DNA of 64,000 nt, taken from NCBI GenBank assembly GCA_964484325.1, contig CAZAEE010000006.1, positions 1,932 to 65,931 of the forward strand, written 5' to 3'. Shown here piece after piece: positions 9,962 to 31,918 of the stretch. Numbering within the stretch: the first letter of the stretch is position 1; each line of letters opens with the position of its first letter. A program made the position numbers and the translations under genes. Below the pieces are notes generated by a model, which ran no database searches, had not been told where the DNA came from, and was given only the letters and a program-made list of their open reading frames with translations. Source of the DNA: an uncultured Gammaproteobacteria bacterium. GTDB taxonomy: Bacteria; Patescibacteriota; Microgenomatia; UBA1406; GWC2-37-13.

Positions 9962-12520
9962 ATGAATTTTAATGGGATGATGAAGAATCTCAATCTTCAA
10001 AAAAACACTTCACTCAAAATTGTTTTGATTGCTATTTTGGCTTTATTTTTTATCGGTGTAATCTATACGGCCGGGAGAGTCAGTCAAAATACCCAGAATA
10101 GAAGCCAAGCGGCTGTATTAAGTATTGCACCAACCCCGACTGTGGCCGCAGGCACAATTTTAATTGATCCAGCCTCAGACAACCACCCAATTAGTCCATA
10201 TATATACGGATGGTCAGATGCCGATCCGGGCGGGACCTATACTACATACCGAGATATGGGTATTTCACTACTGAGATGGGGAGGGAACTCAAGGTCAAGA
10301 TATAACTGGGAAATTAATGCTTCAAATACAGGCTCAGACAATGGCTATTGTAATACTTCAAAAAATTCTGCTTTCACCTTTGTTTCGAGCAATCAGTCAT
10401 ATAGCATGCAGACTCTATTAACTATCCCATTGATAGGCTGGGTTTCTCGAAATACGAGTACCTGTTCTTCTGGATACCCGGGCACTGGTGGTACTGCTCT
10501 CATCCAATATCCAACTCCAGGTTGGGAAACAGGTTCAATTTCAGGTTATAACCCGACAACAAATAGAAATAATACCAGTTACCCGTCGTACCCAAGAAAG
10601 GGTACTTCATTTAGCTTAACGCCAACGCCAGGGGATGGTGCAGTTTATGAAGATGAATGGGTTAATGCACTCAAAGCCAGGTTTGGACAAGGGTCAGGCA
10701 ACGGAGTGCGATTTTATGACCTTGATAACGAATCGGATCTCTGGGCCGATGAAACGCATGTTGATATCCATCCTGCACGCCTTGGTTATGATGAGGAATT
10801 ATATTACATTACACAGTATGCCGATGCCATCAAGGCTGTTGATCCAACAGCTGAACTTCTTGCCCCAGTCAGCTGGGAATATTCTGGAGTTTGGTATTCG
10901 GAACGAGACTGGCAACCAGGTGGACCTAATAGTAATCCAATAGATTACAACTCTCATGGAAACCTATACAGGCTACAATGGCTTCTAAGAAATATCAGAC
11001 AACATGATCTGCAGGTTGGTCATAGGTCAATTGATGCAGTAGACATCCATTTTTATCCTCAAAATGGCCTTGTTCCGGGCAGCAGCTCGCCTGATGCCAC
11101 TGAACAAGCTACTAGGTTAGCCACACCAAGAGGACTGTGGGATCCAACCTATCATTATCCGGGATTCTTAGGCAGCAGCTTGCCTGATGGAGGAATAATT
11201 CGTTTCTTCCCGAGAATAAAGGAAATTATTAATGCAGAATACCCAGGAACAAAGATTGCCATCACTGAATGGAATTGGGGATCAGAGTCACACATTAGTG
11301 GTGGTTTAGCAGCTGCCGATGTTTTAGGTATCTTTGGTCGTGAAGATCTTTATGTTGGTACCTGGTGGCCATTTAATAATCCAGGCGGCACGCCGATTGC
11401 GCTTGCCTGGAAACTATTTAGAAATTATGATGGAAATTTATCAAAGTTCGGTGACACCTCAATAAAAGCGCAGACTGCAGTTGCTGATGTTGATAAAATC
11501 TCAGCCTATGCCAGTAAAGATAGTTCAACAGGTCAAATGAAGGTCGTGCTGATCAATAAACAACCTTCAACTACTGCCAACTTTACTCTTAACTTTAATA
11601 ATTACTCTTATTCAGGACCACTTTCAGGTTATCGTTTCGGATCGGGAAGTTCGTCTATACAATCTGTATCTGGGCTATCTATATCAGGTTCGTCAATGTC
11701 AGTGTCGTTACCTGCTTATACTGCAACACTTATCGTCTTCCCGACTCAGTCAGGCACACCGATTCCCACAGCCACACCAACGCTACCAGCACCTCCTTCC
11801 CCAACACCAACTATTATTCCAATTCCTACGTTTACTGCTGTTTGCTCACAGGCTGCCTCAATTACAGCTCCGACAAATCAGATAACCTCAAGCGATGTTG
11901 CTTCAGTTAGTAACATGTTAGGTTTGTCTTGTTCAGGCTGTAGTCAAGACTTAAACCACGATGGTCGAATCACTATACAAGACGTTAATTTAGTCAGAAA
12001 TTGCCTAAATATCTATAATCCTTTGCCATCCAATACACCAGGTCCCACTCGCACACCGACTCCAGCACCAACTGGCACACAGATAACCATTAACTTTGAT
12101 TCAGGAGTCTATCCAACTCGAACACCTGAATCGCCTCTTACCGGCCAATATCCAGCTAATATTATCGACTGGGGTTCCAGCAATACTGCTTGGTACTATT
12201 CCGGACCTTGGGCTCCGTATGACTCAACCAATAGTTTGACATTTGTGGGAGATACTTCTCCAAAATCAGCGACTTTTACCTTCATTGGCGGACAGAGAAA
12301 GCTTGTCAGCTTCAAAGCAGTCACCAGCGGAACCAATGCTAATCCAAATATAACAATTACTGCAACTTGTGGAAGTCAGAGTTTAAACTATGCAATAACT
12401 CCCGCTAATTTTGGTCAGCTAATAACAGTTCCTACAGGATGGGCCAATACCTGTTCTTCAGTCACTCTTTCTTCTTCAAATGGGGGAGCCACCAACTTCG
12501 ATGATTTAATCGTTCAGTAA
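9962..12520 (+). CDS. Secreted glycoside hydrolase, GH44-like catalytic domain + PT linker + Cys-rich dockerin-like module + C-terminal beta-sandwich-like domain
   Basis: N-terminal TM anchor. HPISPYIYG...LLRWGGNSRSRYNWEINASNTGSD resembles the GH44 signature region. DLNHDGRITIQDVNLV is an EF-hand dockerin repeat. Confidence 0.7.
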   Translation: MNFNGMMKNLNLQKNTSLKIVLIAILALFFIGVIYTAGRVSQNTQNRSQAAVLSIAPTPTVAAGTILIDPASDNHPISPYIYGWSDADPGGTYTTYRDMGISLLRWGGNSRSRYNWEINASNTGSDNGYCNTSKNSAFTFVSSNQSYSMQTLLTIPLIGWVSRNTSTCSSGYPGTGGTALIQYPTPGWETGSISGYNPTTNRNNTSYPSYPRKGTSFSLTPTPGDGAVYEDEWVNALKARFGQGSGNGVRFYDLDNESDLWADETHVDIHPARLGYDEELYYITQYADAIKAVDPTAELLAPVSWEYSGVWYSERDWQPGGPNSNPIDYNSHGNLYRLQWLLRNIRQHDLQVGHRSIDAVDIHFYPQNGLVPGSSSPDATEQATRLATPRGLWDPTYHYPGFLGSSLPDGGIIRFFPRIKEIINAEYPGTKIAITEWNWGSESHISGGLAAADVLGIFGREDLYVGTWWPFNNPGGTPIALAWKLFRNYDGNLSKFGDTSIKAQTAVADVDKISAYASKDSSTGQMKVVLINKQPSTTANFTLNFNNYSYSGPLSGYRFGSGSSSIQSVSGLSISGSSMSVSLPAYTATLIVFPTQSGTPIPTATPTLPAPPSPTPTIIPIPTFTAVCSQAASITAPTNQITSSDVASVSNMLGLSCSGCSQDLNHDGRITIQDVNLVRNCLNIYNPLPSNTPGPTRTPTPAPTGTQITINFDSGVYPTRTPESPLTGQYPANIIDWGSSNTAWYYSGPWAPYDSTNSLTFVGDTSPKSATFTFIGGQRKLVSFKAVTSGTNANPNITITATCGSQSLNYAITPANFGQLITVPTGWANTCSSVTLSSSNGGATNFDDLIVQ
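11825..12022 (+). repeat. 66-codon Cys-rich dockerin-like module, copy 1 (paralogous to 13850-14047)
   Basis: PTFTAVCSQAASITAPTNQITSSDVASVSNMLGLSCSGCSQDLNHDGRITIQDVNLVRNCLNIYNP. Confidence 0.85.
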
Positions 12521-12528
12521 AATACCTA

Positions 12529-12557
12529 TTGACAAACTATTTTTTTTCATTTATTCT
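12529..12557 (+). promoter_or_regulatory. Promoter of the GH5-like gene (TTGACA-N17-TATTCT)
   Basis: TTGACA 12529-12534, TATTCT 12552-12557, ATG 12569. Same -10 hexamer as the GH44 promoter. Confidence 0.6.
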
Positions 12558-12568
12558 CTAGCATAGAG

Positions 12569-14488
12569 ATGGATTCTCAAACTAGTAAGTCCACTATGGA
12601 TAACGCAAACATACCAAAAAACAACACAGCCAAGCTCGCGGTGATTTTTTTAGTTGTCCTTTTTTTTGTTGGAATTATCGTGACGGCAAGTCGCGTCAAT
12701 AATGAGACTCAGACTCGAAGTGAAGCTGCTGTTTTAAGCACAAGTCCTTCTCCTACTCCTGTACTTCCATGGTTAAAGACTATTCAAGGTGCTGGTAATG
12801 GCCAAAGCGGAAAAATCGTGAGAGTTGATAATGGTCAACCAGTTGAGTTAAGAGGAGTTAATGTTTTGCATAATGAGTGGGTATACCCTGATATGACCTT
12901 TGAAAACGCGGCTTTTCCAATTTTATCATCTAATGCTTGGCATGCAAATCTTGTTACACACGGTTTTGCATCAGCACCTGTTGCACAAAATGATGCTCAA
13001 TATATGGGAATTTTGGATCAATATCAACAACTAGCTGAACAGAATCATATGTACATTATTTTCGCCTATTATTACCCAACTATAAACGGTGACCAACCTC
13101 CACGACCTGACGTTGATACTAATTGGAGAACTGCAATGGAGAATCTGGTCACTCGTTACCGCAATCGATCAAACGTAATTTTCATGCTGCAAGCCGAACC
13201 ACATTCTGATACATACAACGGTACGTATTATTCTGTAAATTGGAACACCTTACGACCGGTTTATGATGCAGAAATTGCTCGTATGAGAAATCTTGATAAT
13301 CCTTGTAATGATTCTGGAGCACCTTGTCATCTTATCTTAGGCTCAGGTGATGGTTATGGAAGAGATGTCAGTGCTGCCATTTATGACGAGTATGGTCATG
13401 GTGGGCCAGATCCTGTCCAAAATGCAGCTAACTTCGTCTACAGTAGTCATCCATATGATACAAGAGCTGGTTCTAATGACTGGGACTATGTTCTACCTGT
13501 AGCTGATGCTGGTTATACAGTACTTATAACCGAGTTTGGCACTGGCGGTCAAATGGCACAATCCGACACCTTAGCTCTCATGAGTGAAATGAACAATGGT
13601 TCACGTCATATTGGATGGACAGCTTGGATTTATGATGGACCTGGTGGTTGTCCATGTTTGCTGTCATCTGGTTATCCAAGCTTTGGGGTTTCAAGCCCAT
13701 ATGGTACTTCCGTACGTGACACAATTGTTGCACAGGCGACTCAGTTTGGTGGCCCTCCTGGCACACCAGTTCCAACTATGACACTTGCTCCATCACTAAC
13801 CCCAACTAGACCACCAGCCGCATCTCCCACTCCTACAGTCATTCCAACGCCAACATTTACTGCAGTTTGTTCTCAGGCAGCCTCAATCACCGCTCCAACA
13901 AACCAGGTCACCTCAAGTGATGTGACATCGGTTAGCAATATGATCGGCTTAACTTGCTCAGGTTGTGCACAAGATCTCAATCATGACGGCAGAATCGCAA
14001 TACAAGACGTCAACTTAGTCAGAAACTGTCTCAATATATACAATCCAACGCCAACTCGTACTCCGACTCCAGCACCAACAGGTACCCAAATTACGATAAC
14101 ATTTGAAGACTACCCACCAGCTCCAACACCACCGGCCTCAGGAGACTATGCTATAACTGGTCAATACCCTGTAGGAGTCGTGACATGGGGGACAGGTTGG
14201 TTTACTTCTGATCCTTGGAGAAATCTTACCACTCGCAGCTTAATTGGTCGAAATCCAGGCGGAACCTTTACTACCAACAGAAGACTAACTAGTATAAAAG
14301 CATACACTCCATACAGCAATGTCACAGTTAGTATCACCTGTAGTGGATTGCCATCGGTTAATCAGGCAATCCCAGCCGGTGCAGTAACTCCAGTCAATAC
14401 TGGTTGGACATCTGCTTGCCCAGGTAATATTACGCTTACTTCTTCAAATGGTAATGCCACTAACTTCGATGACATGGTGCTTCAATAA
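12569..14488 (+). CDS. Secreted clan GH-A (GH5-like) glycoside hydrolase + PT linker + Cys-rich dockerin-like module + C-terminal beta-sandwich-like domain
   Basis: TM anchor. RGVNV...; IFMLQAEPH lies where the acid/base NEP motif is expected. SSHPYD; VLITEFG is a nucleophile-type motif. The C-terminal half is paralogous to 9962-12520. Confidence 0.7.
   Translation: MDSQTSKSTMDNANIPKNNTAKLAVIFLVVLFFVGIIVTASRVNNETQTRSEAAVLSTSPSPTPVLPWLKTIQGAGNGQSGKIVRVDNGQPVELRGVNVLHNEWVYPDMTFENAAFPILSSNAWHANLVTHGFASAPVAQNDAQYMGILDQYQQLAEQNHMYIIFAYYYPTINGDQPPRPDVDTNWRTAMENLVTRYRNRSNVIFMLQAEPHSDTYNGTYYSVNWNTLRPVYDAEIARMRNLDNPCNDSGAPCHLILGSGDGYGRDVSAAIYDEYGHGGPDPVQNAANFVYSSHPYDTRAGSNDWDYVLPVADAGYTVLITEFGTGGQMAQSDTLALMSEMNNGSRHIGWTAWIYDGPGGCPCLLSSGYPSFGVSSPYGTSVRDTIVAQATQFGGPPGTPVPTMTLAPSLTPTRPPAASPTPTVIPTPTFTAVCSQAASITAPTNQVTSSDVTSVSNMIGLTCSGCAQDLNHDGRIAIQDVNLVRNCLNIYNPTPTRTPTPAPTGTQITITFEDYPPAPTPPASGDYAITGQYPVGVVTWGTGWFTSDPWRNLTTRSLIGRNPGGTFTTNRRLTSIKAYTPYSNVTVSITCSGLPSVNQAIPAGAVTPVNTGWTSACPGNITLTSSNGNATNFDDMVLQ
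13850..14047 (+). repeat. 66-codon Cys-rich dockerin-like module, copy 2
   Basis: PTFTAVCSQAASITAPTNQVTSSDVTSVSNMIGLTCSGCAQDLNHDGRIAIQDVNLVRNCLNIYNP. About 90% aa identity to copy 1, with many synonymous differences. Confidence 0.85.
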
Positions 14489-14490
14489 TA

Positions 14491-14519
14491 TTGAATACTC
14501 ACTCAGCCCGAGATATAAT
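14491..14519 (+). promoter_or_regulatory. Promoter TTGAAT-N17-TATAAT, 5 nt before ATG 14525 (leaderless)
   Basis: TTGAAT 14491-14496, TATAAT 14514-14519. Confidence 0.6.
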
Positions 14520-14524
14520 ATAGT

Positions 14525-14875
14525 ATGGGTAAGGAAGAACTTCCGAAAAATGTCATACCGCTCAGATCCAACCAAGATAAATTGTTGACACCTGAAGAAA
14601 AATTATTGCATAGTATATTTCCTCCTGAAAGATTGCAGGGATCGCCTCCAACAGAACGTAAGTTAGAACTTGTCAAACCTTCAACCGAAGAAGAGGTAGC
14701 TCAAAACAACGCCAATCAATACCTTTTAAAGGCACTGTTGAGGATTTCTCCAGAGCAACGTCAACTTCATATACTTTTTGCTCAGGGACTATCAGTTGAT
14801 GAGATCGCCAAGACCATGGGTAAAACAATTGACGAACTAGAAACATTACTCAATATTCTACCTGATGAAGATTAA
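14525..14875 (+). CDS. Small protein with C-terminal sigma70-region-4/LuxR-like helix-turn-helix
   Basis: RQLHILFAQGLSVDEIAKTMGKTIDELETLL resembles a region-4 HTH. Confidence 0.5.
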   Translation: MGKEELPKNVIPLRSNQDKLLTPEEKLLHSIFPPERLQGSPPTERKLELVKPSTEEEVAQNNANQYLLKALLRISPEQRQLHILFAQGLSVDEIAKTMGKTIDELETLLNILPDED

Positions 14876-14911
14876 TTCTGTGAACCCAGACTCCCTAGGG
14901 TGAAACTCTTT

Positions 14912-14939
14912 GATAAAAAGTCTCATAAGACTTTTTATC
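14912..14939 (+). terminator. Perfect 12-bp hairpin (gataaaaagtct-cata-agactttttatc), probable terminator
   Basis: Read directly. The U-rich run lies within the descending arm; there is no separate T-tail. Confidence 0.5.
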
Positions 14940-15909: not shown

Positions 15910-17646
15910 TCAAGGGGTTGGTGTCGGAGTTGGATTATTAGGCAGTGAGCCGTCGCAGTAGCGCTCAAGATTGGGAACAGGTACTGATTGACCATATTCA
16001 GCTTTTACCTTGTTAAAATCATTGATATCTACCGCCCCATTACACTCAATATCGGCACAGGGCACAGTTGGCGTCGGAAACGGTGGCTGAATAATTGATG
16101 AGCAAGCTTGGCCAAACTGAGCCTTAACTAGATTATAATCTTGAATTGTTATAACTCCATTTCGATTAATATCAGCTCTGTTACGAGTATACGTTGGTGT
16201 CGGGGTGAATATTGGCGTCACTGAAGGTGGCGGCGGGCGCGTCGGAGTAGGAGTCGGAGTACTCACACCAGGTAATGGTATAGCACCTTGTGTGTAATAG
16301 TTACCGACATTAAGCCGAATATAACCACCATCGTCATCAGCATATGGTGGAGTTAATACTGCTGCAACCCCCATTGGATTGTTTGTCGGACCTGGTACTG
16401 GTGTTAAATTACCCAGTCCATCTGATCGATAATCCCAGTAATGAGTCTGACTACCTACCCCTGCGCCCCACATGATGGCCATCAGTCCAACATTAGCCCA
16501 TTCTTGGATATGTTGCCTCCCATTGGTTGAGTTAAGAAAATACTCAGTTCTGTTATCTTGGTAGTGCCCATTGGTATTGTTTTCAGTTGTGTATACCCGG
16601 TTGCCGTTTGGCACCTGCCACATGATGGCTCGTTTCTGAGTACCGTTGATAATGGTACCTAACCACCCTCGAAAAGTACTAAACTTAGGCTCTCGACTGT
16701 CGTCATTCCACCAATACCGGTTACTTCCTTGAGTTAATAGGTAATACGAAGCATCGCGATCTAAAGGATCCATGGCTACCAAGTTCCAACCCGCACCAAA
16801 CGTATTAAAGTATGTTACTACCCGATTAGCCTCATCAGTCGCGTTACAGTACCCGTCTCGTAAACAAAGTGTCATATCAACACCGGTGCCCCACATGGAT
16901 ATAGTTAAGGCTAAAGTTGTATTAGGCGCATATAAATCTCTTAAATGGGCTAGTCCTTCATGAAACCCCCGGTAATTATTTTCTATAAGAGGACTTTGAA
17001 ACTCGGGCATGCCGCTTGAGGCGACTGCGGCAGTTTGGGCGACGGCGTTATCACCGCCGTTTGTGTTTTGTTGCATATGTCCCTCGCCATCTGGTTCAAG
17101 GATGACGATCGCATGACGACTCGTGCCACCAATCTGCTGCATCAGGTACTTGAATTCATCATAGTAGGTTCTCATCTTCGTCGTATCGTTAATACTTAAT
17201 GCTGGATCTTCAGTGTCTGTGGTACAGATTCCATTTGAAGCATTCAACGAGCAGAACCGGTAGAGAGTAAATGCGGGAACCATGCTCGTTGGAGTCTGAT
17301 TGATATAGCTTGAGACGTAGTTTGCCCCGTAACCATTAATCCAATCACCAGCCATATACTGGTACCGGTAGTTATACGGCACACCAGCATGCATATCCGA
17401 TAACGTCCCGTTAAAAAGGCCAAAACCGAAAACTCCTGGTAATCCCGGTGGTACCGGTGGCAAAGGAGGCGGAGTTGGCGTAGCAGTTAAAAGAGCCACT
17501 GCCCGTGTTGACTGGTTGTACGACTGATTTTTCTGAAGCGTAAATGTTAAAATAGCTATCGCAAGAACCAATAATAAAAACCCGGCAAGTGCTAGTGTAG
17601 TGGGGCGTTTATTAGGACTCGATTGAGAACTTGAAGAAAGCGGCAT
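15910..17646 (-). CDS. Secreted protein: TM anchor, PT linker, putative glycoside-hydrolase-like domain, PT linker, two dockerin repeats
   Basis: DINRNGVITIQDYNLV and DIECNGAVDINDFNKV near the C-terminus. HAIVILEPDGEG weakly resembles the GH6 EPD motif (low confidence). Confidence 0.6.
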   Translation of the reverse strand: MPLSSSSQSSPNKRPTTLALAGFLLLVLAIAILTFTLQKNQSYNQSTRAVALLTATPTPPPLPPVPPGLPGVFGFGLFNGTLSDMHAGVPYNYRYQYMAGDWINGYGANYVSSYINQTPTSMVPAFTLYRFCSLNASNGICTTDTEDPALSINDTTKMRTYYDEFKYLMQQIGGTSRHAIVILEPDGEGHMQQNTNGGDNAVAQTAAVASSGMPEFQSPLIENNYRGFHEGLAHLRDLYAPNTTLALTISMWGTGVDMTLCLRDGYCNATDEANRVVTYFNTFGAGWNLVAMDPLDRDASYYLLTQGSNRYWWNDDSREPKFSTFRGWLGTIINGTQKRAIMWQVPNGNRVYTTENNTNGHYQDNRTEYFLNSTNGRQHIQEWANVGLMAIMWGAGVGSQTHYWDYRSDGLGNLTPVPGPTNNPMGVAAVLTPPYADDDGGYIRLNVGNYYTQGAIPLPGVSTPTPTPTRPPPPSVTPIFTPTPTYTRNRADINRNGVITIQDYNLVKAQFGQACSSIIQPPFPTPTVPCADIECNGAVDINDFNKVKAEYGQSVPVPNLERYCDGSLPNNPTPTPTP

Positions 17647-22036: not shown

Positions 22037-22219
22037 GGGGTAAAACCATAGTCCTTATAGTATGAGGTGTGTGTAGTAGATATGCGTCAATTGAGCCTGA
22101 TACGTATCTGGAAACTGAGATTAGCTAGGCACGAATCGTGGCCAGATAGCTCAATCAGGAAAAATTAGTCTCTTGATTTTTAGACGAAATTGGCGTTAAA
22201 TAAGGTAAAAAGGATACAT

Positions 22220-24013
22220 ATGCTAACTTTTGCAAAACGGACTAACTTCATTTTTTACTATGCCATCGTCTTTTATATGTTACTAGTTATGGGGGTAATC
22301 GTCTTGAAGCTGTCCCATATCCTGCCTGACCGGTTTCCGAAAGCCCGTCCCGAAGAGCAGCGGGTGAATGCACCCTTAAGCTATCAACAGCTACTTGACC
22401 AAAATCGGATTAAACCGCCGGGTCTTATTGTTCTTGTTGATCTTCATTATGATAAAAATGCCCAACCTGCAATTTCTATCAAAAATCTTCACGGGATGAA
22501 TGGCTATGTACCAAAACATCCTGACGAACTGCCTCAAGTGACAGCGTCGCCGACGTATACCCTACAAGTAAAAAGTGCCAGCAGTGACTTGGTATATACT
22601 CTCCACTTTCAGGTACCAAACACCCAAATGAGCGACGCCCTCGGAGATGATAAAAATTTTCACGGGAATGGGGAAAAAATTCTTTCCCAAGTCGACTTTG
22701 CAGAAGTGATTCCCTGGACTGCTAATAGCTCCCGTTTGGAAGTGGCCGATGCGAGAAATAGCACGGTTACCCAATCTTCTTTGACTGACGTCAAGTTTGA
22801 TAATAATGCACCCAATTTTTTAACCTTACAGACTGATACGAACCAACCGGCCACTCCCGATACCCAACAAACCCTTAACATTACGTTTATCGGCGATATG
22901 TTTCAGCAGGATCTGGGGCTGTTTCACTCAAATGTCAGTCAATTCTCAAATCATATGACATCTCTTTATGAACCTTATAAGTCACGGGCATCACAACTAA
23001 CTTTCAGATATGTAGATAATACTGACCCCCTCTACTGTCGAAATGACGGTGGGTATATCACGTGCGGTTGCAATAACTACCCGAGTCAACCGTGTGATCC
23101 TGCATACGTCATTCAACGGGTGGGCGCTACACCTTGGGATAAGATTATGGTTATTGTCAATGACCCCACCAATTATGGCGGAGGATCAGGGCTGGGTTCA
23201 CCAGTCTCAACGGCTTACAATGGGTCATGGGGCTCTCAGATATTTGTTCACGAGTTTGAGCACGCTTTTGCTTCTTTGGAAGATGAGTATGATTATGGCA
23301 TCACGGAGCCGTATACCAATCAAGTCGATGCCAACTGTTATGCCGGTTTGCCACCTGCCGCTCCTTGGCAAAATATTGTTGCTCAAAGAGATTATTATAT
23401 TGTCTGTGGAAGATCTAACTGGTACCGGGCGTCAAATGACAGCCTCATGCACGGGATTGCCACAACATATTTAAATGCCGTATCCCAAAATATGATCAAC
23501 TCGACACTCAACAACTATGTTGGCCCGTACACCAACTCATCGTCACCAACAGCTACTTTAAGCTCTCCTTCAAGTGGTATTTACGTATCTGGTTTAACGA
23601 CGTTCCCTGCCACTGCTGCAGACGATGCTGGAGTCGGGTGGGTTGACCTATGGGAAAATAATACAGTCCAAAATACTGCCTATCTGAGTCCTTACTCGCT
23701 TGTTTGGAATTCAGGTACTGTGGCTGGACTCCACACATTAGTTGCCAAAGCACATGATTCAGCTGGCAATATGGGTACCTCAGCTCCTGTATCTGTGGTC
23801 GTTTGTCCAGGAGATGCCAATCATAATGGAACTGTCAGCATCGTTGACTTCAACATCCTTAAATCGACCTATGGGAAACAACTCGGGGACTATGGGTATG
23901 ATGGAAGAGCTGATTTTAACGGAGATAATATAGTTGGTATTTCTGATCTTAATATATATAAAATAGCTCAGGGGACAGACTGCATACGATTCATGCCAAC
24001 GGGTACTCCTTAG
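22220..24013 (+). CDS. Secreted M64 (IgA-peptidase-like) zinc metalloprotease + Ig-like domain + two dockerin repeats
   Basis: FVHEFEHAFASLEDEYDY (HExxH...DEY as in family M64). DANHNGTVSIVDFNIL and DFNGDNIVGISDLNIY. ATG 22220 preferred over TTG 22190. Confidence 0.7.
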   Translation: MLTFAKRTNFIFYYAIVFYMLLVMGVIVLKLSHILPDRFPKARPEEQRVNAPLSYQQLLDQNRIKPPGLIVLVDLHYDKNAQPAISIKNLHGMNGYVPKHPDELPQVTASPTYTLQVKSASSDLVYTLHFQVPNTQMSDALGDDKNFHGNGEKILSQVDFAEVIPWTANSSRLEVADARNSTVTQSSLTDVKFDNNAPNFLTLQTDTNQPATPDTQQTLNITFIGDMFQQDLGLFHSNVSQFSNHMTSLYEPYKSRASQLTFRYVDNTDPLYCRNDGGYITCGCNNYPSQPCDPAYVIQRVGATPWDKIMVIVNDPTNYGGGSGLGSPVSTAYNGSWGSQIFVHEFEHAFASLEDEYDYGITEPYTNQVDANCYAGLPPAAPWQNIVAQRDYYIVCGRSNWYRASNDSLMHGIATTYLNAVSQNMINSTLNNYVGPYTNSSSPTATLSSPSSGIYVSGLTTFPATAADDAGVGWVDLWENNTVQNTAYLSPYSLVWNSGTVAGLHTLVAKAHDSAGNMGTSAPVSVVVCPGDANHNGTVSIVDFNILKSTYGKQLGDYGYDGRADFNGDNIVGISDLNIYKIAQGTDCIRFMPTGTP

Positions 24014-24018: not shown

Positions 24019-25965
24019 TTAATGAGTTCGACCTGAATTAGGATCAACAATGATCCCTGAGGTATCAACTACTTCAAACATCGATGCCTGAAGATTAAGA
24101 AATTCTTGATTCATAGCATAATTGTCTCCTGTAGCCGGATCGCCATTGTTCCACATACCTGGATCATTCCAACGACAATCTGGCACGCCGTCAAAGCCAA
24201 TGGCTGCGCCAATAGTGCCATCTGCCAAAATCATGCCGTAATTTCTCAATGTTCTCAGGATAACTTTCATTTGAGGAGACCAGCTACCAGTCTCTATATT
24301 AACATTTGATTTCAATCGAAGTCGTAGACCAAAAGGAAGCGAATCAGGAGCAGACAAACTACCATCGCCTGAGTGACGAGCCGGCCAGATATATGGCGTC
24401 GGGTACGAGTTAGCTCGAATAATATTGTCATCAGTGACAAAGCGCAATGCATGATGGATCATACCACCTGATTGTTGCATTGCGGCCCAAACTTCATCAT
24501 ACCGGATAAGTCCTGGAAATACCGGTAAACCAGCAGCATCTGCTGAAGTCCAACCATCATGTCTCAATGGTTGATTGGGATCATCCATATCCCATTTGGC
24601 ACCAGAGCCGGCCGCATATCCATTACCAGAGTGTTGAGTAGCAAATGTTTCATAGATATTACAAGAACCATTTTGAATAACTATTGCGTGTCTATCACCA
24701 CTATTATTGGGCATGTCTTGGATGCCAACTCCGGTAGGATAGGGATAAGGCCCAGGATCGCTTTCGCCACTATAGACAAAACTCATCGGAACAAGTGGTT
24801 GATTAGTTGGTACAACGTTATAGGGAATACCATATAATCCATTGCTATAGAGCCCGCTGCCGAATCCAACAAAGGCTTTCCCAGGAGGACTCCCGATATT
24901 ACTCATCCTTGTGATTTGTTGAGAAGATATAGATGTCACTGGCAAATCAGTAATCGTACGATTCCAGTAATTGTCAGCTGTAAATATCGGACAATTAATT
25001 GAGCCAGGAGGAGGATCAGACCAGTACTGTTGTTCATTTGGCGCACATATTGGCGACGGAAGAACCGCTATCGGGGTTGGAGTTGGCTGACTAGCAGTTG
25101 GTGTCGGTGAAGGAGGAGGAGGACGAGTAGGTGTTACTGTTGGTATTGGCAAGTTTTTGCGACAGGTGAAACCAATACTCGCTTTATAAATATTGATGTC
25201 TCGTATATTAATGCAACCATCGCCATTGAGATCATAGGGTGAACTCTGGCATGTACCAAACTGTGTCATGATTGAGCTATAGTCGGAGATTGTAACAGTA
25301 CCGTCCTGATTAACGTCTGCCAAACAGGCATATTCTTCAATAATAAACTTATCGACTTTGACGTTCCCTTGTTGTCCTCTAACAATAAGGGTATGAAGAC
25401 CAGGAGCAAGCGAAAAGGCTTTTGGTGCAAATTTGTTATAACCAGGTGTATTTAATCCTCGCCAGGATGCAATACGAGTCTGGAATCCACTCGTTGCCGG
25501 TATATCCCACAACATAGTCGAGTCAGTCGGCTCTCCATCTATATTAATATAAAGTGCAGAAGTAGCATTTGGCTCTTGAGCGTCAACTACTGCTTTAACA
25601 ATAAACCGCTCCATAGACGGAGGTATTGGTGTAATTGAAGCTATGGGAGGAATGGTGAACGTATAGGAAGCTCTACCGCCTTGAGTCGGATCAACGGTTG
25701 GATTGGGATTGGGCTGGTAAATATAAATAGGCGGCGTCGGTGCACTGATGACAAATGGTACAGTAATGGTGCCATTTTCAGCTTCAATTGTGGCAATTGG
25801 TGGAGTAGGCGTCGGAGTTGGAGTACTGTTTAAGGCTGCTCGGCTAAAAGGATTTGTCGACTGCTGATTAGCTTTGTTAAAAAGAACTACAATAATACTC
25901 AAAAGAAAAATCAACAATAGAACCAAGTAAGGAGAATACTTTGTTTGAAACTCTTTAAGTTGCAT
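24019..25965 (-). CDS. Secreted protein: TM anchor, PT linker, CBM-like domain, two Cys-bracketed dockerin repeats, PT linker, conserved C-terminal domain of unknown function
   Basis: IEAENGTITVPF... resembles a CBM6/35 start. DVNQDGTVTISDYSSI and DLNGDGCINIRDINIY. C-domain has GDRH...SADAAGLP...HALRF motifs. Confidence 0.65.
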   Translation of the reverse strand: MQLKEFQTKYSPYLVLLLIFLLSIIVVLFNKANQQSTNPFSRAALNSTPTPTPTPPIATIEAENGTITVPFVISAPTPPIYIYQPNPNPTVDPTQGGRASYTFTIPPIASITPIPPSMERFIVKAVVDAQEPNATSALYINIDGEPTDSTMLWDIPATSGFQTRIASWRGLNTPGYNKFAPKAFSLAPGLHTLIVRGQQGNVKVDKFIIEEYACLADVNQDGTVTISDYSSIMTQFGTCQSSPYDLNGDGCINIRDINIYKASIGFTCRKNLPIPTVTPTRPPPPSPTPTASQPTPTPIAVLPSPICAPNEQQYWSDPPPGSINCPIFTADNYWNRTITDLPVTSISSQQITRMSNIGSPPGKAFVGFGSGLYSNGLYGIPYNVVPTNQPLVPMSFVYSGESDPGPYPYPTGVGIQDMPNNSGDRHAIVIQNGSCNIYETFATQHSGNGYAAGSGAKWDMDDPNQPLRHDGWTSADAAGLPVFPGLIRYDEVWAAMQQSGGMIHHALRFVTDDNIIRANSYPTPYIWPARHSGDGSLSAPDSLPFGLRLRLKSNVNIETGSWSPQMKVILRTLRNYGMILADGTIGAAIGFDGVPDCRWNDPGMWNNGDPATGDNYAMNQEFLNLQASMFEVVDTSGIIVDPNSGRTH

Positions 25966-26306: not shown

Positions 26307-26324
26307 GATGGTATAATTGTCTAG

Positions 26325-26897
26325 GTGAATGAAACAATACTTTTTATTGATGGAGAAAATTTCATATATAAACTCGAAGATATCTTAAGAGAGAAAAGAA
26401 TTGATAAAAATAAAGTCGATCTTTCAACTATTGATTTCAATCTTTTATTTGAGAAGCCACTAAGAAATTTTAAACTAACCAGGAAGATTTTTTATGCAGC
26501 AAGACTACATGTATATCCTGATACTAAAAAAAGGTCTGAAGTTTTGATTAAATTTCAGCGAAAGTTGCGTAATACTCTTGTGAAACAAGGATTTGAATTT
26601 ATCATCGCGGGAAATGTAAGAGCACAAGAAGTCGATGGAAAATTGATATTTAAAGAAAAAGGTGTTGATGTAAAAATTGCCGTAGATATGGTCTCCTGGG
26701 CATGTGACAAAAAAATGCATAGAGCAATTCTTTGCAGTTCAGATTCAGACCTGCAGCCTGCCATAAAAGAATCACTGAGAAGAAAAGTTGAAGTAGTATA
26801 TCTTGGATTTGAGATGAATCCTAATAAAGGGCTAACAGCCACCACAAGTAGAACTATTTTATTTAGGAATTCAGAAATTCTTGAGGTAATCCAATAA
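26325..26897 (+). CDS. NYN-domain (LabA/DUF88-like) putative RNase
   Basis: ILFIDGENF...GVDVKIAVDM...CSSDSDLQPAI. GTG start 7 nt after the extended -10 TGgTATAAT (26309-26317). Confidence 0.7.
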   Translation: MNETILFIDGENFIYKLEDILREKRIDKNKVDLSTIDFNLLFEKPLRNFKLTRKIFYAARLHVYPDTKKRSEVLIKFQRKLRNTLVKQGFEFIIAGNVRAQEVDGKLIFKEKGVDVKIAVDMVSWACDKKMHRAILCSSDSDLQPAIKESLRRKVEVVYLGFEMNPNKGLTATTSRTILFRNSEILEVIQ

Positions 26898-26944
26898 AAA
26901 TCGTTTATACAGAGTATACTTATATTGATTCTCCAACCTAAAGC

Positions 26945-27865
26945 ATGTTGAAATTAAAACGCTCTGAACATAATCCTATCTTAAGCCCGTCTGATGAGCT
27001 GTGGGAAAATAAACTCGTTTTCAATCCTGGTGCAATCATGGTCAATGAGGAGATCTATTTAATTTATCGTGCCATGGGTCAGCGTGAAAATTATTCGCGA
27101 CTTGGTTTGGCCATAAGTCAAGACGGAATAAATTTTAAAAGAAATAAAACACCTTTATACTATGGTAAAGGTCATCCTGATGAATCACTGGGTATTGAAG
27201 ATCCAAGAGTCGTCAAAATTGACGATACATATTATCTTACCTATACTGCAGTTTCTGAAGATCTTGAGGCTGAAGTCAATCGTGGATGGAAGGAACAAAT
27301 CGCCAAAAAGCCCCGCATTGCCCTTTCGACAACAAAAGATTTCAAAACTTATATTGATCATGACGTGATTATTCCGAATTTATCAGGGAAAAACTCCAGT
27401 TTTTTTCCACGGAGGGTAAACGATGAATTTTGGTTACTGTATAGAGCTGGCGTTGGCAAAACCTACTTTGGCCATTCACCTTCACTCACGCACTGGCCTG
27501 ATGTTCATCAAGTTTTTGAAGAACGACCTGGTATGTGGGACTGCATACGAACAGGGATTGGAGCACCGCCGATTGAAACTGAGAAAGGTTGGCTACTGTT
27601 TTATCATGGAGTGTGCGAGTCAAATATCTATCGATTAGGTATTATGTTTCTCGATCTTGAAGACCCAACTAAAATTCTGTACCGTTCACCAGAGCCGATT
27701 CTTGAGCCACAAGAAAAGTACGAGAAACTAGGATTCATACCCAATGTAGTTTTTACCTGTGGCGCTATCGAGAAAGATGACCTCTATTATGTCTATTACG
27801 GCGCCGCTGATCAAGTGATCGGTTTGGCAACCGTTGAAAAAAAATTAGTATTAGGCCTTTTTTAG
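26945..27865 (+). CDS. GH130-family glycosidase/beta-mannoside phosphorylase-like protein
   Basis: NPILSP...FNPGAI...IYLIYRA...LGLAISQDGINF...GIEDPRVVKIDDTYYLTYTA. Confidence 0.8.
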   Translation: MLKLKRSEHNPILSPSDELWENKLVFNPGAIMVNEEIYLIYRAMGQRENYSRLGLAISQDGINFKRNKTPLYYGKGHPDESLGIEDPRVVKIDDTYYLTYTAVSEDLEAEVNRGWKEQIAKKPRIALSTTKDFKTYIDHDVIIPNLSGKNSSFFPRRVNDEFWLLYRAGVGKTYFGHSPSLTHWPDVHQVFEERPGMWDCIRTGIGAPPIETEKGWLLFYHGVCESNIYRLGIMFLDLEDPTKILYRSPEPILEPQEKYEKLGFIPNVVFTCGAIEKDDLYYVYYGAADQVIGLATVEKKLVLGLF

Positions 27866-30073
27866 ATACTGCTGCAGTGAGAGGTTCGCCATCAAGAAAC
27901 AAACAATAGACTCGGCTCCTTCATTTTGATTCACTCCTCGTAAATTTAAGCCATCATGAACACCTTTTGTTTCAAGATCATAGATATACCGATGATTTCT
28001 ATTACTTCCAAAAAACCATTCAAATGCCAGTAAGGCCTTATTAACGTACTGCTTGTCGTTGACTGCTTGTGCTGCAAATATATACGCCTCTACTGCTCCT
28101 CCTGCCTCAAGTGGTTGCTGATCGTAATCTGCTTTTGACTGTCCTTTTTTGAACCACCCTTCTTGCCCGATAAAATCAAAATAACCCTTCTTTGAATTAA
28201 AGTTACAGGCTGTAATAAACTCAAGCGTTGCCAAGGCAACTTCTTTATACTTTTTATTTTGAGTTACCATATAAGCTGCAAAAAGTGACTGGGGTAAACG
28301 AAAGTTATCGTAGGTTATGATATCTTCAAACCATTGCCACTCCTTGTCTGATGATTTCGTATATGCTTCAACAAGAAAATCTGCCAATGTTATCAGATTA
28401 CTCATCGCAGCCTGTGATTTATCGGTTTTGTTTTGATACGTAATGATGTAATAATATAATCCTAGAATTGAGTATGAGGCAGTCCGTAAATCTCGGATAT
28501 GTTTTAGCTGATCAAGACTTGTATTGAAAATTGAGTGAATAGGTTGAGTTAAGGTAGTATCTTTATTTCGATATAGGTATACTCCCAAAGCCCAGATTGC
28601 TTTTCCAAAAGTATCAGCGTTGTCTTGACTATCAGTCCAATTCCGGTGAAAATTAAGAAAATTGTGGAATTTGCCATCTGATTCTTGTGCATATTCTAAG
28701 AAACTTAGATAAATATTGATCAGTTGAGGAATATTGTTAGTTTTTATCTGATCAGATAGTTGATTATTTAGATGAGATACAACGATTAAAGCTCTCGCAT
28801 TGTCATCGGTACTGTATCCAAATTTTCTGTTGGGAATAATATGATGCGCGTGTTGAATAATACCTACGGAGTCTGTTAAATGAGCTAAATAGGCTATATC
28901 GATCGGACTAGTAATGAACTTTTTAGTCTTTAACTTTATATCTCTCTCTTGTTGAAGTACTCGGGTGTATAAACTACTATGTTTTTTAGCTACGTTTGAC
29001 CACTGCATTTCTTTTCGCAGGGCCTGTGCTTTTAACTCTTTATTATGTCTCTTCTCAGGTTTGTTATATAAATCGGCAATTGCACCTGCAATAGCATCCT
29101 TATCCCGAAACGGTACCAGCGTGCCGCGGCCGTTTGCTAAGATATTTTTGGCATACACATACTCGGTTGAGATACACGCTTTTCCAGCTCCGATAGCATA
29201 GGACAAAGTACCTGAGGTTATTTGTTGTGGATCCAAGTACGGGGTAATATATACATCAGTTGCCGCCAATAAAAGCTGTAACTCTTCTAGGGGGACGTAC
29301 TTATTTTTGAAAACAACATGCTTTTCTAAATGTAATTTTTTAACCAACTCAATAAGCTCATTACGGTAAGATTCTCCTTCGCTAATTTTGACAAGTGGAT
29401 GTGTTTCGCCGATGATCAAAAAAACAAGGGAAGGAATTTGGGACGAAACTTTCGCAACTGCTTCAATAGCGTACTCAATGCCTTTATTGCGACTCAGAAG
29501 ATTGTTTGCAAGTAAAATAAACTTATTTGAAAAACCGATGAGCTTTTTGGCTTTCTTGTTATCCATATCAACAATAGGTGCTCCATGTAAAATAATGTCA
29601 ATATCAGATGAGTCAATGCCATAAATTGACTTGATGCGATCTTTAGCAATTTCATCCATGACGATTATTTTTCGGCTTAACCGAGCAAGTTCTTGTATAA
29701 TTCGTCTTTGGTTTGCTGAAGGAGTAAGTAGAATCGTATGAAACGTTGTAAAAAGAGGTTTTGTTATTTCTGAGGCAAACTCCAGGATAAACTCACCATC
29801 ACGTCCTCCATAAAGCCCAAACTCATGTTGAATATGAACAATCTCAGTTTCACTGGTATTAACAAAATGAGCACCCGTATGGTATTCTTCAATTTTCTCC
29901 TGTTCAATAGTCCGCGTGACGGGGTCAGAATAAGAAAGGGGAATAATCGGGTTGTCCATGGCAATGATAGAGACAGTGTCTCCTTGATGCTGTAACTCCA
30001 TAGCCAGATCTCGCGTGTACGTGGCGATGCCACATTTTCTTGGTATAAATGATGACACAAATGTAATATGCAT
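27851..30073 (-). CDS. GT4 glycosyltransferase fused to a C-terminal (alpha/alpha)6-toroid-like domain
   Basis: MHITFVSSFIPRKCGIATYTRDL plus a GT1/GT4 core. The C-terminal ~350 aa is helical-repeat, six-hairpin-like. ATG 30073 preferred over 30127. 15-nt 3-prime overlap with the GH130 gene. Confidence 0.75.
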   Translation of the reverse strand: MHITFVSSFIPRKCGIATYTRDLAMELQHQGDTVSIIAMDNPIIPLSYSDPVTRTIEQEKIEEYHTGAHFVNTSETEIVHIQHEFGLYGGRDGEFILEFASEITKPLFTTFHTILLTPSANQRRIIQELARLSRKIIVMDEIAKDRIKSIYGIDSSDIDIILHGAPIVDMDNKKAKKLIGFSNKFILLANNLLSRNKGIEYAIEAVAKVSSQIPSLVFLIIGETHPLVKISEGESYRNELIELVKKLHLEKHVVFKNKYVPLEELQLLLAATDVYITPYLDPQQITSGTLSYAIGAGKACISTEYVYAKNILANGRGTLVPFRDKDAIAGAIADLYNKPEKRHNKELKAQALRKEMQWSNVAKKHSSLYTRVLQQERDIKLKTKKFITSPIDIAYLAHLTDSVGIIQHAHHIIPNRKFGYSTDDNARALIVVSHLNNQLSDQIKTNNIPQLINIYLSFLEYAQESDGKFHNFLNFHRNWTDSQDNADTFGKAIWALGVYLYRNKDTTLTQPIHSIFNTSLDQLKHIRDLRTASYSILGLYYYIITYQNKTDKSQAAMSNLITLADFLVEAYTKSSDKEWQWFEDIITYDNFRLPQSLFAAYMVTQNKKYKEVALATLEFITACNFNSKKGYFDFIGQEGWFKKGQSKADYDQQPLEAGGAVEAYIFAAQAVNDKQYVNKALLAFEWFFGSNRNHRYIYDLETKGVHDGLNLRGVNQNEGAESIVCFLMANLSLQQYLKKA

Positions 30074-30101
30074 AAGTATTGATAGTAATTTTAAACGACT
30101 T

Positions 30102-30323
30102 TTATTTAGGTAAGCTCTCCTTTTCAAGTGCTTTAGTATATTCTGTCTCGGTAATCACATGCGCATCACTGATAACTTGATCTACAGAATAAGGAATGCC
30201 TGATGTAGTTTGACTGAATATCTCATTTGTATCGATATCCAAATCAAGCTTTATGTAGACCTTGCTTTCACTTACAAAATATGCTGGAAAATTCAGCTCA
30301 TACCCAGTCTTACTGGAGTCCAT
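30102..30323 (-). CDS. Small hypothetical protein (73 aa)
   Basis: ORF only; upstream of and co-oriented with the GT4 gene. Confidence 0.35.
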   Translation of the reverse strand: MDSSKTGYELNFPAYFVSESKVYIKLDLDIDTNEIFSQTTSGIPYSVDQVISDAHVITETEYTKALEKESLPK

Positions 30324-30397
30324 GTAGTCACCATTCTTTCTACTTTAAGTATACACCTATTTTAATTTTTGCGAGAGGAATCAACGTGGTAAGCAGA

Positions 30398-31918
30398 TTA
30401 CTGCGTATCCACCAAATCGTCATACTTTATGCTTAATGCCGCAATAACTAGCGAGTAGTCTTGGGTATCGATAACTCCATCAAGGTTCAGATCAGCGTTC
30501 GTAAGAATAGTCGAATCTGTCTGACCGAAGTTTTGCCTGATATAAGACGTATCTTCTGAGTCAATGACGCCATTCTGGTGACCGTTGGTGATTGGTAAAT
30601 CTCCCGCAAGAAGCAGTATTCCGGTAAAGTCGAGCGTATTTACGCCTTGGGTGAGTGGAATGTTGTCGTAATTGCAGTGATAGTATCCGCCGGCGGTCTC
30701 AGTTGGAACCGCATCACAAATACGTTTTTGAAGGTGCTTGGGACCTTTCAGATAAATAGAAAATGTTGGTAACTGAGGCGGACTGCCAATTGGCACAAGA
30801 AGCGATAGTTCCACACTACCAATCCAATCAGGCTTTGACGCACTCGGTTGAAAGCACACAGTTTTTACAATAGGTGTGTCTAAACTGGCACCCGTAACTG
30901 TCAATAAAAAATTCTGACAGAAGTTTGGCGGATACGACCCCGACGTCGTAATGCCTTGTTCGCGAACATTCATAATGAGTGTTGTGTTTGTGGTCGGTGT
31001 CGGGAACGGAGTAGAAGTGGGTGTTTCTCTTGGAGGAGGTGTTTCCGTCGGGATAGGTGAGGTAACCGGACCGATTGGTGGCGTATCGGTGGGAAACGCC
31101 GCCTGGATGAGATTTTTCCGACAGATTGTCCCAACAACCCGTTTATAAATGGCAACATCCTGTATGGTCGTACAGCCGTCACCGTTGGCATCAGTTGCTC
31201 CCATTTGGCAATCCCCAAACTGGTTCACGATTGAGTTATAGTCAACGATATTGACTACGCCGTCAACATTGGTATCGATCAGACACCCATACTCTTCAAT
31301 GATTATTTGACTTACCTTAACATCGGCTGACTGTCCTCTAATTACTACTGTGTGTTGACCCGGTGCTAAAGAAAATGCTTTCGGATTAAATTTATTCACT
31401 CCGGCCGCATTACTTCCTCTCCAAGCCACAGTACGCGTCTGGAATCCGTTTGTTGCCTGAATATCCCATATCATAGATATATCAGGCTCGCCATCTATAT
31501 TGACATATAGACCACCTGCGGCGTTTGGTTCCTGGACGTTAACCAGCATCTTAACAATAAATTCTTCATTTGAAGCAAACTGCGACGGTGACGTAACTAC
31601 TGGTGGAACAGTGAACGAATATATCGCTTCGCCGCCTTGATCAGGATCTACGGTTGGGTTGGGGTTTGGCTGATAAACATATCCGGGGGTTGTTGCGCCA
31701 CTTGATACAAAAGGGGCGGTAATCAGACCATTCTCAGCATCGATGACAGCGATAGGTGGTGTTGGAGTCAGAGTAGGTGTGTTGTTAATCTGTGCTCGAC
31801 CGTAAGGATTCACGGGACTTTGATTAATGCGAAGCGAGAGAAACGTAAAGATGGTCACCGAAAGTAACATCAGCAAAAGAAAAGGGAGAGCTCTATTTCG
31901 GGACCGTTTCGTACTCAT
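30398..31918 (-). CDS. Secreted protein: TM anchor, PT linker, CBM-like domain, internal dockerin pair, PT linker, unknown domain, C-terminal dockerin pair
   Basis: N-terminal 270 aa paralogous to 24019-25965. DTNVDGVVNIVDYNSI, DANGDGCTTIQDVAIY, NGHQNGVIDSEDTSYI, DLNLDGVIDTQDYSLV. Confidence 0.65.
   Translation of the reverse strand: MSTKRSRNRALPFLLLMLLSVTIFTFLSLRINQSPVNPYGRAQINNTPTLTPTPPIAVIDAENGLITAPFVSSGATTPGYVYQPNPNPTVDPDQGGEAIYSFTVPPVVTSPSQFASNEEFIVKMLVNVQEPNAAGGLYVNIDGEPDISMIWDIQATNGFQTRTVAWRGSNAAGVNKFNPKAFSLAPGQHTVVIRGQSADVKVSQIIIEEYGCLIDTNVDGVVNIVDYNSIVNQFGDCQMGATDANGDGCTTIQDVAIYKRVVGTICRKNLIQAAFPTDTPPIGPVTSPIPTETPPPRETPTSTPFPTPTTNTTLIMNVREQGITTSGSYPPNFCQNFLLTVTGASLDTPIVKTVCFQPSASKPDWIGSVELSLLVPIGSPPQLPTFSIYLKGPKHLQKRICDAVPTETAGGYYHCNYDNIPLTQGVNTLDFTGILLLAGDLPITNGHQNGVIDSEDTSYIRQNFGQTDSTILTNADLNLDGVIDTQDYSLVIAALSIKYDDLVDTQ

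Follow-up and report, generated by a model that had tools for sequence, protein, structure and literature searches.

Six dockerin-bearing secreted proteins of a Candidatus Roizmanbacteria-like organism as the probable cargo of a small cohesin-dockerin surface display system

We analyzed a 64,000-nucleotide stretch of contig CAZAEE010000006.1 (assembly GCA_964484325.1), referred to here as the window, in which six open reading frames (ORFs), P1 to P6, encode modular secreted proteins with dockerin-type segments (Table 1). An earlier note on this DNA had singled out the same six ORFs as a cellulosome-like set with no cohesin of its own. All six are present, an alternative TTG start being available for P4. 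Each of the six proteins begins with an N-terminal hydrophobic segment, and the Pro/Thr linkers described in the note were found. The dockerin-type modules are internal in P1, P2, P5 and P6, where they are also bracketed by cysteines, again as the note had described.

Table 1. Positions (in the window) of the six dockerin-bearing ORFs, their modules and other features discussed in the text.
Feature	Position	Strand	Remarks
P1	9962..12520	+	852 aa; export signal, Pro/Thr linker, GH44, Pro/Thr linker, dockerin-like module, Pro/Thr linker, β-rich domain
P1 dockerin-like module	11843-12016		Cysteine-bracketed; degenerate loop 1, then canonical loop 2
P1 C-terminal β-rich domain	12074-12517		About 150 aa; common to P2
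P2	12569..14488	+	639 aa; export signal, GH5, Pro/Thr linker, dockerin-like module, Pro/Thr linker, C-terminal β-rich domain
P2 dockerin-like module	13868-14041		Same type as in P1
P2 C-terminal β-rich domain	14081-14485		
P3	15910..17646	-	578 aa; export signal, Pro/Thr linker, GH-like (β/α)-barrel, Pro/Thr linker, near-C-terminal dockerin-like module
P3 dockerin-like module	15955-16173		Two loops 40 residues apart, with cysteines
P3 barrel	16267-17445	-	About 400 residues
P4	22190..24013	+	607 aa (TTG 22190) or 597 aa (ATG 22220); anchor/signal, M64-like, bacterial Ig, C-terminal dockerin
P4 dockerin	23804-23983		Between Cys529 and Cys588; loops 33 residues apart (canonical spacing)
P5	24019..25965	-	648 aa; export signal, Pro/Thr linker, CBM6/35-like, compact dockerin, Pro/Thr linker, conserved C-terminal domain
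P5 CBM6/35-like β-sandwich	25327-25797		Assigned by homology to P6
P5 compact dockerin	25162-25326		Cysteine-bracketed; two loops 28 residues apart
P5 C-terminal domain	24022-25068	-	About 350 aa
P6	30398..31918	-	506 aa; export signal, Pro/Thr linker, CBM6/35-like, compact dockerin, Pro/Thr linker, X module, C-terminal dockerin
P6 CBM6/35-like domain	31286-31753		
P6 compact dockerin	31121-31285		Cysteine-bracketed
P6 X module	30599-31006		
P6 C-terminal dockerin	30419-30598		
iPGM	128-1801	+	Pfam
PfkB sugar kinase	1802-2725	-	Pfam
PGM/PMM	2936-4345	-	Pfam
MFS transporter	7007..8311	-	Adjoins the GH44/GH5 genes; Pfam MFS_1 8.8e-48, Sugar_tr 2.8e-8
ORF-free interval	8312-9961		1,650 bp, between the MFS and GH44 genes
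Trigger factor	20517-21386	-	289 aa
GH130	26945..27865	+	β-1,4-mannooligosaccharide phosphorylase family; Pfam Glyco_hydro_130 2.5e-62; no export signal
Smaller secreted protein	34072-34536	+	
Larger secreted protein	34568-35923	+	Cys-rich
Threonyl-tRNA synthetase	35973-37217	+	414 aa

A loop motif, D-x-[ND]-x-[DN]-G-x-[IVLT]-x-x-x-D, was searched in the six-frame translation of the whole window. The strict motif occurs nine times, and all nine occurrences lie inside P1 to P6; after residue shuffling, the mean count fell to 0.003 in the six proteins and to 0.025 across the six frames, and no shuffle yielded more than one. P1 and P2 have a single canonical loop apiece, P3, P4 and P5 have two, and P6 has three along with a semi-degenerate one (NGHQNGVIDSED); position 12 is an aspartate in every loop. 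A dockerin has tandem 12-residue Ca2+ loops with ligands at positions 1, 3, 5, 9 and 12, each leading into a helix. P3, P4 and P5 have both loops in canonical form, as does the internal P6 module; loop 1 is semi-degenerate in the C-terminal module of P6, and the modules of P1 and P2 combine one canonical loop with one ligand-less loop. The latter, ITAPTNQ[IV]TSSD, retains the structural positions 6, 8, 9 and 12 and has lost ligands 1, 3 and 5; the canonical loop follows it at the 28-29-residue spacing, and with the cysteine pattern, seen in the compact modules inside P5 and P6. Because the module alignment reveals this degenerate first loop upstream of the canonical one, the dockerin segments of P1 and P2 are, as judged from the alignment, not half-modules. 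The Pfam Dockerin_1 model (PF00404; curated gathering score 22.9 bits) matched all six proteins, the curated threshold being exceeded by P5 (27.6 bits) and P6 (40.9 bits) alone.

P1 contains a GH44 domain (Pfam, 1.5e-47) that also aligned with the NCBIfam GH44 EpsB model at 2.9e-82, under that model's cutoff. P2 contains a GH5 domain (Pfam Cellulase/GH5, 3.8e-14) with GH5 cellulases 5ecu_A (8.6e-7) and 5fip_A as PDB relatives. The two proteins end in a common cassette of linker, module, linker and β-rich domain that is 55% identical between them. Within it, the 66-residue dockerin-like module is far more similar: 60 of its 66 residues are identical, and 34 of the 66 codons differ synonymously only. 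Nonsynonymous divergence (dN) is 0.06, synonymous sites are saturated and no long DNA repeat was found; for these reasons P1 and P2 appear to be old, constrained paralogues, and the codon pattern of the module indicates that it is under strong purifying selection. The 76% nucleotide identity and the number of synonymous codon differences led us to reject recent gene conversion as the source of the likeness.

The remaining catalytic candidates are more divergent. The P3 barrel belongs to a family of 819 cluster representatives and has no Pfam relative and no PDB relative by sequence profile. AlphaFold predicted a (β/α)-barrel with a predicted local distance difference test score (pLDDT) of 86 and a predicted template modeling score (pTM) of 0.89, and a Foldseek search with this model returned distant GH53, GH35, GH6 and GH26 barrels (TM 0.3-0.45). 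The predicted fold is GH-like, and the barrel may represent an undescribed glycoside hydrolase family. Across the family an EPD motif is invariant and a DDDGG motif nearly so. P4 matched Peptidase_M64 (1.3e-8; 34.8 bits, cutoff 26) and Big_7 (1.4e-7) in Pfam and carries a putative zinc site, HEFEH, at residue 344 (HExxH); the M64 match is partial, covering profile positions 108-168 of 302, and P4 is classified on this partial match as an M64-like zinc metalloprotease. The GH44-like, GH5-like and M64-like assignments made in the note were thereby confirmed, as was the occurrence of a dockerin on a protease. The N-terminal half of P5 is 61% identical to that of P6, and its CBM6/35-like domain was assigned by this homology. 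More than 2200 hits, from Chloroflexota, Acidobacteriota and other phyla, make up the highly conserved family of the C-terminal domain of P5, whose members elsewhere are joined to SLH, FN3, Ig (Big) or dockerin modules. Pfam has no model for the domain, a sequence profile found no relative in the PDB, and 62 columns are invariant among 25 sequences, including ESDPGP, GDRH, TSADAAGLP and HALRF; the domain is probably an uncharacterized extracellular enzyme. The GH44, GH5, GH-like P3, P5 and protease proteins thus all carry dockerin-type modules, which supports the note's view of a set of secreted modular enzymes for surface display.

P6 has no catalytic domain. A Foldseek search placed its N-terminal domain with CBM6/CBM35 modules 5la2 and 2y8k (probability 1.0, root-mean-square deviation ∼3.2 Å, 118 columns) and 2cdo, the model of this domain being of low confidence owing to a shallow alignment. 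In overall layout P6 resembles a CttA-like substrate-binding anchoring protein. Searching with P6 retrieved more than 115 homologues that share residues ∼300-501 as one conserved block, with the consensus ...Y.IY.KGPKHLQKRIC...LLAGDLP.QNG.VDS.D.S.IR.N.G.TD...ADLNLDGIIDTQDYSLVIAALS.KYDE. AlphaFold modeled this unit at pLDDT >90 as a β-sandwich (311-436), a loop-helix (454-462), a short helix (469-475) and a second loop-helix (485-496). The helices at 454-462 and 485-496 follow the Ca2+ loops, as do helices 224-232 and 252-274, which were modeled with low confidence. The best PDB sequence matches of P6 were the scaffoldin X module-dockerin chains 4u3s_B and 4wi0_B (E ∼1e-3), over residues 430-492, a stretch that takes in the last part of the X module and the dockerin. 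By the model and these alignments, the C-terminal unit of P6 is an X module plus dockerin dyad of the type II/III-like kind (X-Doc). Foldseek with the whole P6 model ranked no dockerin or X-Doc structures, small domains scoring poorly in a multi-domain query, and the X module does not detectably resemble ruminococcal X modules in sequence. In the Candidate Phyla Radiation (CPR) relatives P0322, P0335, P0346, P0360 and P0251, the X-Doc is fused to thermolysin-like M4 peptidases or, in P0251, to SLH; because of these fusions, the X-Doc would be a general surface-attachment tag in the lineage.

The named relatives of the PheS protein, at 66-68% identity, are almost all Candidatus (Ca.) Roizmanbacteria, which places the source organism, by this marker, as Ca. 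Roizmanbacteria-like, in Microgenomates within CPR/Patescibacteria. Exact look-ups of the window's proteins returned short Logan contigs from SRR9179563 and nothing else, their clusters were singletons, and a scan of a genome collection retrieved the sister genome alone. The closest genome is this sister assembly, GCA_964387955.1 (PheS 80% identical), which holds orthologues of P6, P5 and P3 in preserved gene order at 53%, 71% and 49% identity, respectively. The Ca2+ loops and cysteines of the dockerin modules are kept in these orthologues. The sister syntenic region is without the M64 protease gene (22190-24013) and the NYN, GH130 and GT4 genes (26325-30127), so that the neighbourhood of the dockerin genes varies between species. 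The sister record is titled 'uncultured Gammaproteobacteria bacterium', and the close homologues P0143 and P0289 carry the name 'Weeksellaceae bacterium'. These names are probably taxonomic mislabels in public records, since PheS identity and gene content group all of them with Ca. Roizmanbacteria. From motif enrichment, Pfam matches, PDB alignment, the AlphaFold X-Doc model, conservation and purifying selection, we conclude that the dockerin modules of the six proteins are real; by homology, they would bind cohesins in a Ca2+-dependent manner.

Cohesins are common on lineage proteins that carry a P6-type X-Doc. Nine of ten P6 homologues checked matched the Pfam Cohesin model above its cutoff of 24.1 bits (up to 59.3 bits), and the cohesin always lay upstream of the X-Doc; several of these cohesin-bearing homologues are named Ca. 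Roizmanbacteria or Microgenomates. Two lineage-specific cohesin hidden Markov models (HMMs) were built from CPR cohesins. Lineage HMM matches gave one or two cohesin-like domains in 46 P6 homologues, and none of these 46 relatives is a polyvalent multi-cohesin scaffoldin. The middle domain of P6 itself was considered as a divergent cohesin and ruled out: the cohesins of its homologues lie upstream of the region corresponding to P6 residues 300-501, and the lineage cohesin HMMs miss P6.

In the sister genome, contig CAYLXX010000013.1 carries a three-gene cohesin cluster, with P0248 directly followed by two small cohesin genes, c196 and c217, among genes for peptidyl-tRNA hydrolase, L28, peptide deformylase and DsbB. 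P0248 is a cohesin-like plus X-Doc adaptor and is the closest such protein to P6. c196 combines an N-terminal membrane anchor with a Cohesin domain (33.6 bits), and c217 has a cleavable-looking signal peptide, a Cohesin domain (47.6 bits) and a C-terminal LPQSG followed by a hydrophobic stretch and an RYIKL tail. The tripartite LPXTG signal is the established sortase signal, and on this basis the C-terminus of c217 is identified as a sortase-type sorting signal. A further protein, P0249, also joins a cohesin-like domain (lineage HMM, 1.4e-23) to an X-Doc. Its X-Doc is 64% identical to that of P0248, P6 and its sister orthologue P0011 share 66% in the same region, and the cross-pairs share 56-62%. 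P0249 is found at NCBI only and, like P0126, an NCBI-only protein of the window, is outside the contig index, whereas two related NCBI assemblies are inside it. We lean, on this circumstantial evidence, toward P0249 being the cohesin/X-Doc gene of the window's own genome, on a 174-kb contig.

We favor, as a probable though far from settled reading, that the six genes are the cargo half of a small, lineage-typical cohesin-dockerin surface display system whose cohesin half is encoded elsewhere in the genome. P1 to P6 would leave the cell through Sec, with probable cleavage at small-x-Ala sites lying 10-15 residues past the hydrophobic segment. Their dockerins would bind, Ca2+ dependently, cohesins borne by single- or double-cohesin proteins of the types seen in the sister genome: X-Doc adaptors, N-terminally membrane-anchored proteins, or proteins with a C-terminal sortase-type signal. 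P6, with its CBM6/35-like domain, dockerin and X-Doc, would tether the cell or the complex to polysaccharide, as CttA and ScaE do in Ruminococcus flavefaciens. As suggested by gene content, GH44, GH5, the P3 barrel and P5 would attack glucan- or mannan-type polymers and P4 would degrade protein; the products would enter through the major facilitator superfamily (MFS) transporter and be processed by GH130, PGM/PMM, PfkB and iPGM.

Several observations weigh against this reading. The lineage cohesin HMMs gave nothing at E <1 in the six frames of the window or in the sister syntenic 22 kb, and the window yielded neither a sortase nor a protein with a sortase signal; the anchoring elements, that is, the membrane-anchored cohesin and the LPQSG cohesin, were seen in the sister genome only. 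The source organism probably has cohesins, a conclusion drawn from the sister species and from the circumstantial assignment of P0249. Dockerin_1 scores of P1 (19.9 bits), P2 (16.2), P3 (19.0) and P4 (18.7) are below the cutoff, with E-values of 9e-4 to 1.2e-2. The compact cysteine-bracketed modules (P1, P2, P5 and P6 internal) are unlike the dockerin of the X-Doc, the type found together with cohesins, and AlphaFold gave low confidence for the internal P6 module (pLDDT 40-76).

The failure to find cohesins is the starting point of the note's own interpretation, in which the organism is cohesin-less and its dockerins dock on a non-cohesin receptor. Candidates for it would be the organism's own pili or S-layer, the larger, Cys-rich of two adjacent secreted proteins (Table 1), or a host surface if the organism is an epibiont. 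The absence itself was confirmed: besides the lineage-specific profiles, Pfam cohesin (PF00963) gave no match at E ≤0.01 over the 58 non-nested window ORFs of at least 110 aa (59 are listed; the nested 54128-54604 was left out). A type IV pilus cluster does lie in the window. Dockerins are also widespread in organisms that make no cellulosome, according to a passage of PMC6487960 citing Peer et al., 2009 (FEMS Microbiol Lett 291:1), and an essential dockerin-domain envelope protein of a Saccharibacterium has been suggested to target host glycans (PMC10633639). The window, however, covers a small part of the genome, and for that reason the absence of a cohesin from it says little. Cohesins are common in the lineage proteins described above that share the X-Doc of P6, three cohesin genes lie outside the syntenic region in the sister genome, and P0249 plausibly comes from the window's own assembly. 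There is also precedent within Microgenomates: cohesin-domain and dockerin-domain proteins are reported to be expressed in Ca. Shapirobacterales BG1-G2, and the authors took them, together with glycoside hydrolases, for a carbohydrate-degrading apparatus resembling a cellulosome (Bell et al., 2022; PMC9123182). As to the candidate receptor named in the note, neither the larger nor the smaller secreted protein found support as a scaffoldin or cohesin in sequence searches, Pfam, NCBIfam, PDB and lineage HMM searches being null and BLAST detecting no internal repeats; both are without a family or structure match. The larger one is 24% identical to the sister protein in the corresponding position and appears to be a fast-evolving surface protein. 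We therefore hold the cohesin-less interpretation to be very unlikely. It is probably an artefact of the window, since the cohesins of the sister genome sit on another contig.

A second alternative concerns the compact modules and would split the functions. Only the C-terminal X-Doc of P6 would bind a cohesin, and the disulfide-bracketed modules of P1, P2, P5 and P6, perhaps with those of P3 and P4, would be a separate Ca2+-binding type, serving as Ca2+/disulfide-stabilized rigid spacers, in enzyme-enzyme oligomerization, or as binders of glycans or other surface proteins. Such a split would fit the sub-cutoff Pfam scores of P1-P4, the shorter loop spacing with its conserved cysteine pattern, the internal placement and the P1/P2 loop devoid of Ca2+ ligands. 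The X-Doc is, moreover, the sole dockerin type that co-occurs with cohesins in the cohesin-bearing homologues, and likeness to the NCBIfam GC-type dockerin (NF041540, cutoff 29 bits) is weak, at 23.8 bits for the internal module of P6 and 19.5 bits for P5, both below the cutoff and amounting to resemblance only. Against this, the compact module of P5 exceeds the Pfam dockerin threshold, three different cohesin genes in the sister are enough for several dockerin types, and the strong purifying selection on the P1/P2 module argues against a mere spacer. One-loop (group-2) dockerins of R. flavefaciens bind the ScaE cohesin (PMC12270676), and degeneracy of a dockerin alone is for that reason no argument against its function. 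We regard the split as unlikely, if the more serious of the objections to a single cohesin-binding role.

A more elaborate version of the display system would have two tiers, in which enzymes with disulfide-locked compact, partly one-loop dockerins bind a Coh-X-Doc adaptor and the adaptor in turn binds a membrane- or sortase-anchored cohesin; in a stronger form it would also serve host or partner attachment. This elaboration strikes us as distinctly improbable. Were the stronger form true, the internal modules with their bracketing cysteines would form a new class of dockerins, one that recognizes either cohesins of its own or a non-cohesin receptor.

The favored reading, a cohesin-dockerin display system with its cohesins encoded elsewhere, has its closest counterpart in R. 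flavefaciens. There, the X-Doc of CttA binds the sortase-anchored cohesin of ScaE while the N-terminal CBMs of CttA hold cellulose (PMC4266597). P6, with its C-terminal X-Doc and N-terminal CBM-type module, is comparable to CttA, and c217 of the sister, a single cohesin with a C-terminal sortase-type signal, to ScaE. Dockerins are found on both glycoside hydrolases and peptidases in the two cases (PMC11557425 among the sources), and the single functional Ca2+ loop of P1/P2 parallels the group-2 dockerins (PMC12270676). The systems differ in that the organism here belongs to the CPR and has a reduced genome, whereas R. flavefaciens is one of the Firmicutes; that the relatives here carry one or two cohesin-like domains with no multi-cohesin scaffoldin seen; and that many dockerins here are internal and cysteine-bracketed and the X module has the signature KGPKHLQKRIC. 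BG1-G2 shares with the present organism its CPR supergroup and the joint occurrence of cohesins, dockerins and glycoside hydrolases. It belongs to another order, was described at the level of annotation and expression, and the description includes no X-Doc family, cysteine-bracketed internal dockerins or anchoring cohesins (PMC9123182).

The clostridial (Acetivibrio/Clostridium) cellulosome, with its type I and type II dockerins, has in common with the six proteins the duplicated F-hand loops D-x-N-x-D-G-x-[IV]-x-x-x-D, the scaffoldin chains matched by P6 and GH5 plus GH44 cargo. The proteins examined here lack a large CBM3 multi-cohesin scaffoldin and SLH anchoring, the X-Doc-SLH fusion of P0251 being the one instance among relatives. 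Internal dockerins occur in clostridial enzymes; cysteine-stabilized dockerins are atypical of clostridia. Non-cellulosomal dockerins resemble the present case in being carried by assorted secreted proteins, peptidases included, in organisms that are not classical cellulosome producers (PMC6487960, in the part citing Peer et al., 2009; PMC10633639 for the Saccharibacterium). Here, by contrast, the lineage has cohesins on proteins with a module common to P6, and because those cohesins sit on proteins sharing its X-Doc, the label 'orphan dockerin' probably does not apply. Dockerin-bearing peptidases have been described (PMC6487960), and protease-borne, one-loop and internal dockerins all have precedents. 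What is distinctive lies in the details: cysteine bracketing, internal placement, compact spacing, single Ca2+ loops in some modules and a lineage-specific X module. By analogy, the system is most likely a small Ruminococcus-style cohesin-dockerin display and not a classical cellulosome, a filing we avoided because no polyvalent scaffoldin was seen in the lineage and the cohesins of the organism's own genome are unproven.

The absence of a cohesin from one 64-kb window thus does not make a system cohesin-less, and the attractive reading is probably wrong. The data offer a sketch of how uncultured, reduced-genome Roizmanbacteria may keep extracellular hydrolases and a protease at the surface, the parts proposed being a conserved X-Doc family, cohesins in single or double form, and anchors of the membrane or sortase type. 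The sketch is relevant to polymer feeding by small cells, and possibly to adhesion, without opening a new category of system. For experimenters, it provides defined dockerin modules and the candidate cohesins c196, c217 and P0248/P0249, and it brings to light two large, enzyme-like families that are uncharacterized, those of the P3 barrel and of the C-terminal domain of P5.

The surroundings of the six genes are compatible with feeding on polysaccharides. GH130 likely performs an intracellular step on imported oligosaccharides, the MFS transporter is a candidate importer of released sugars, and iPGM, PfkB and PGM/PMM would provide metabolic context for such a lifestyle. The window also encodes, by Pfam, a DUF5660 protein, the type IV pilus cluster and a GT4 protein. 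The interval between the MFS and GH44 genes has no ORF longer than 93 aa and a G+C content of 30% against ∼41% for the window; an Rfam search over it gave no match even at E ≤1.

Two housekeeping proteins are unusual in their domain content. Trigger factor consists of the N- and C-terminal domains only and has no peptidyl-prolyl isomerase (PPIase) domain, and the sister version, of 295 aa, is alike. The threonyl-tRNA synthetase aligns with residues 178-582 of the 582-aa sister enzyme and is missing the N-terminal editing/tRNA_SAD part. Its identity to the sister enzyme is 40.5%, compared with 63-89% for other orthologue pairs, and it could have been replaced or be highly diverged. The export signals of P1, P2, P3, P5, P6, the larger secreted protein, P0248, P0249 and L005:12507-13124 share a peculiar layout, in which 10-15 polar, N/Q/S-rich residues separate the hydrophobic segment from a small-x-Ala site. 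The putative signal-peptidase sites (SQA|A, SEA|A, TRA|V, SRA|A, GRA|Q and SSA|Q) are unusually distant from the hydrophobic core.

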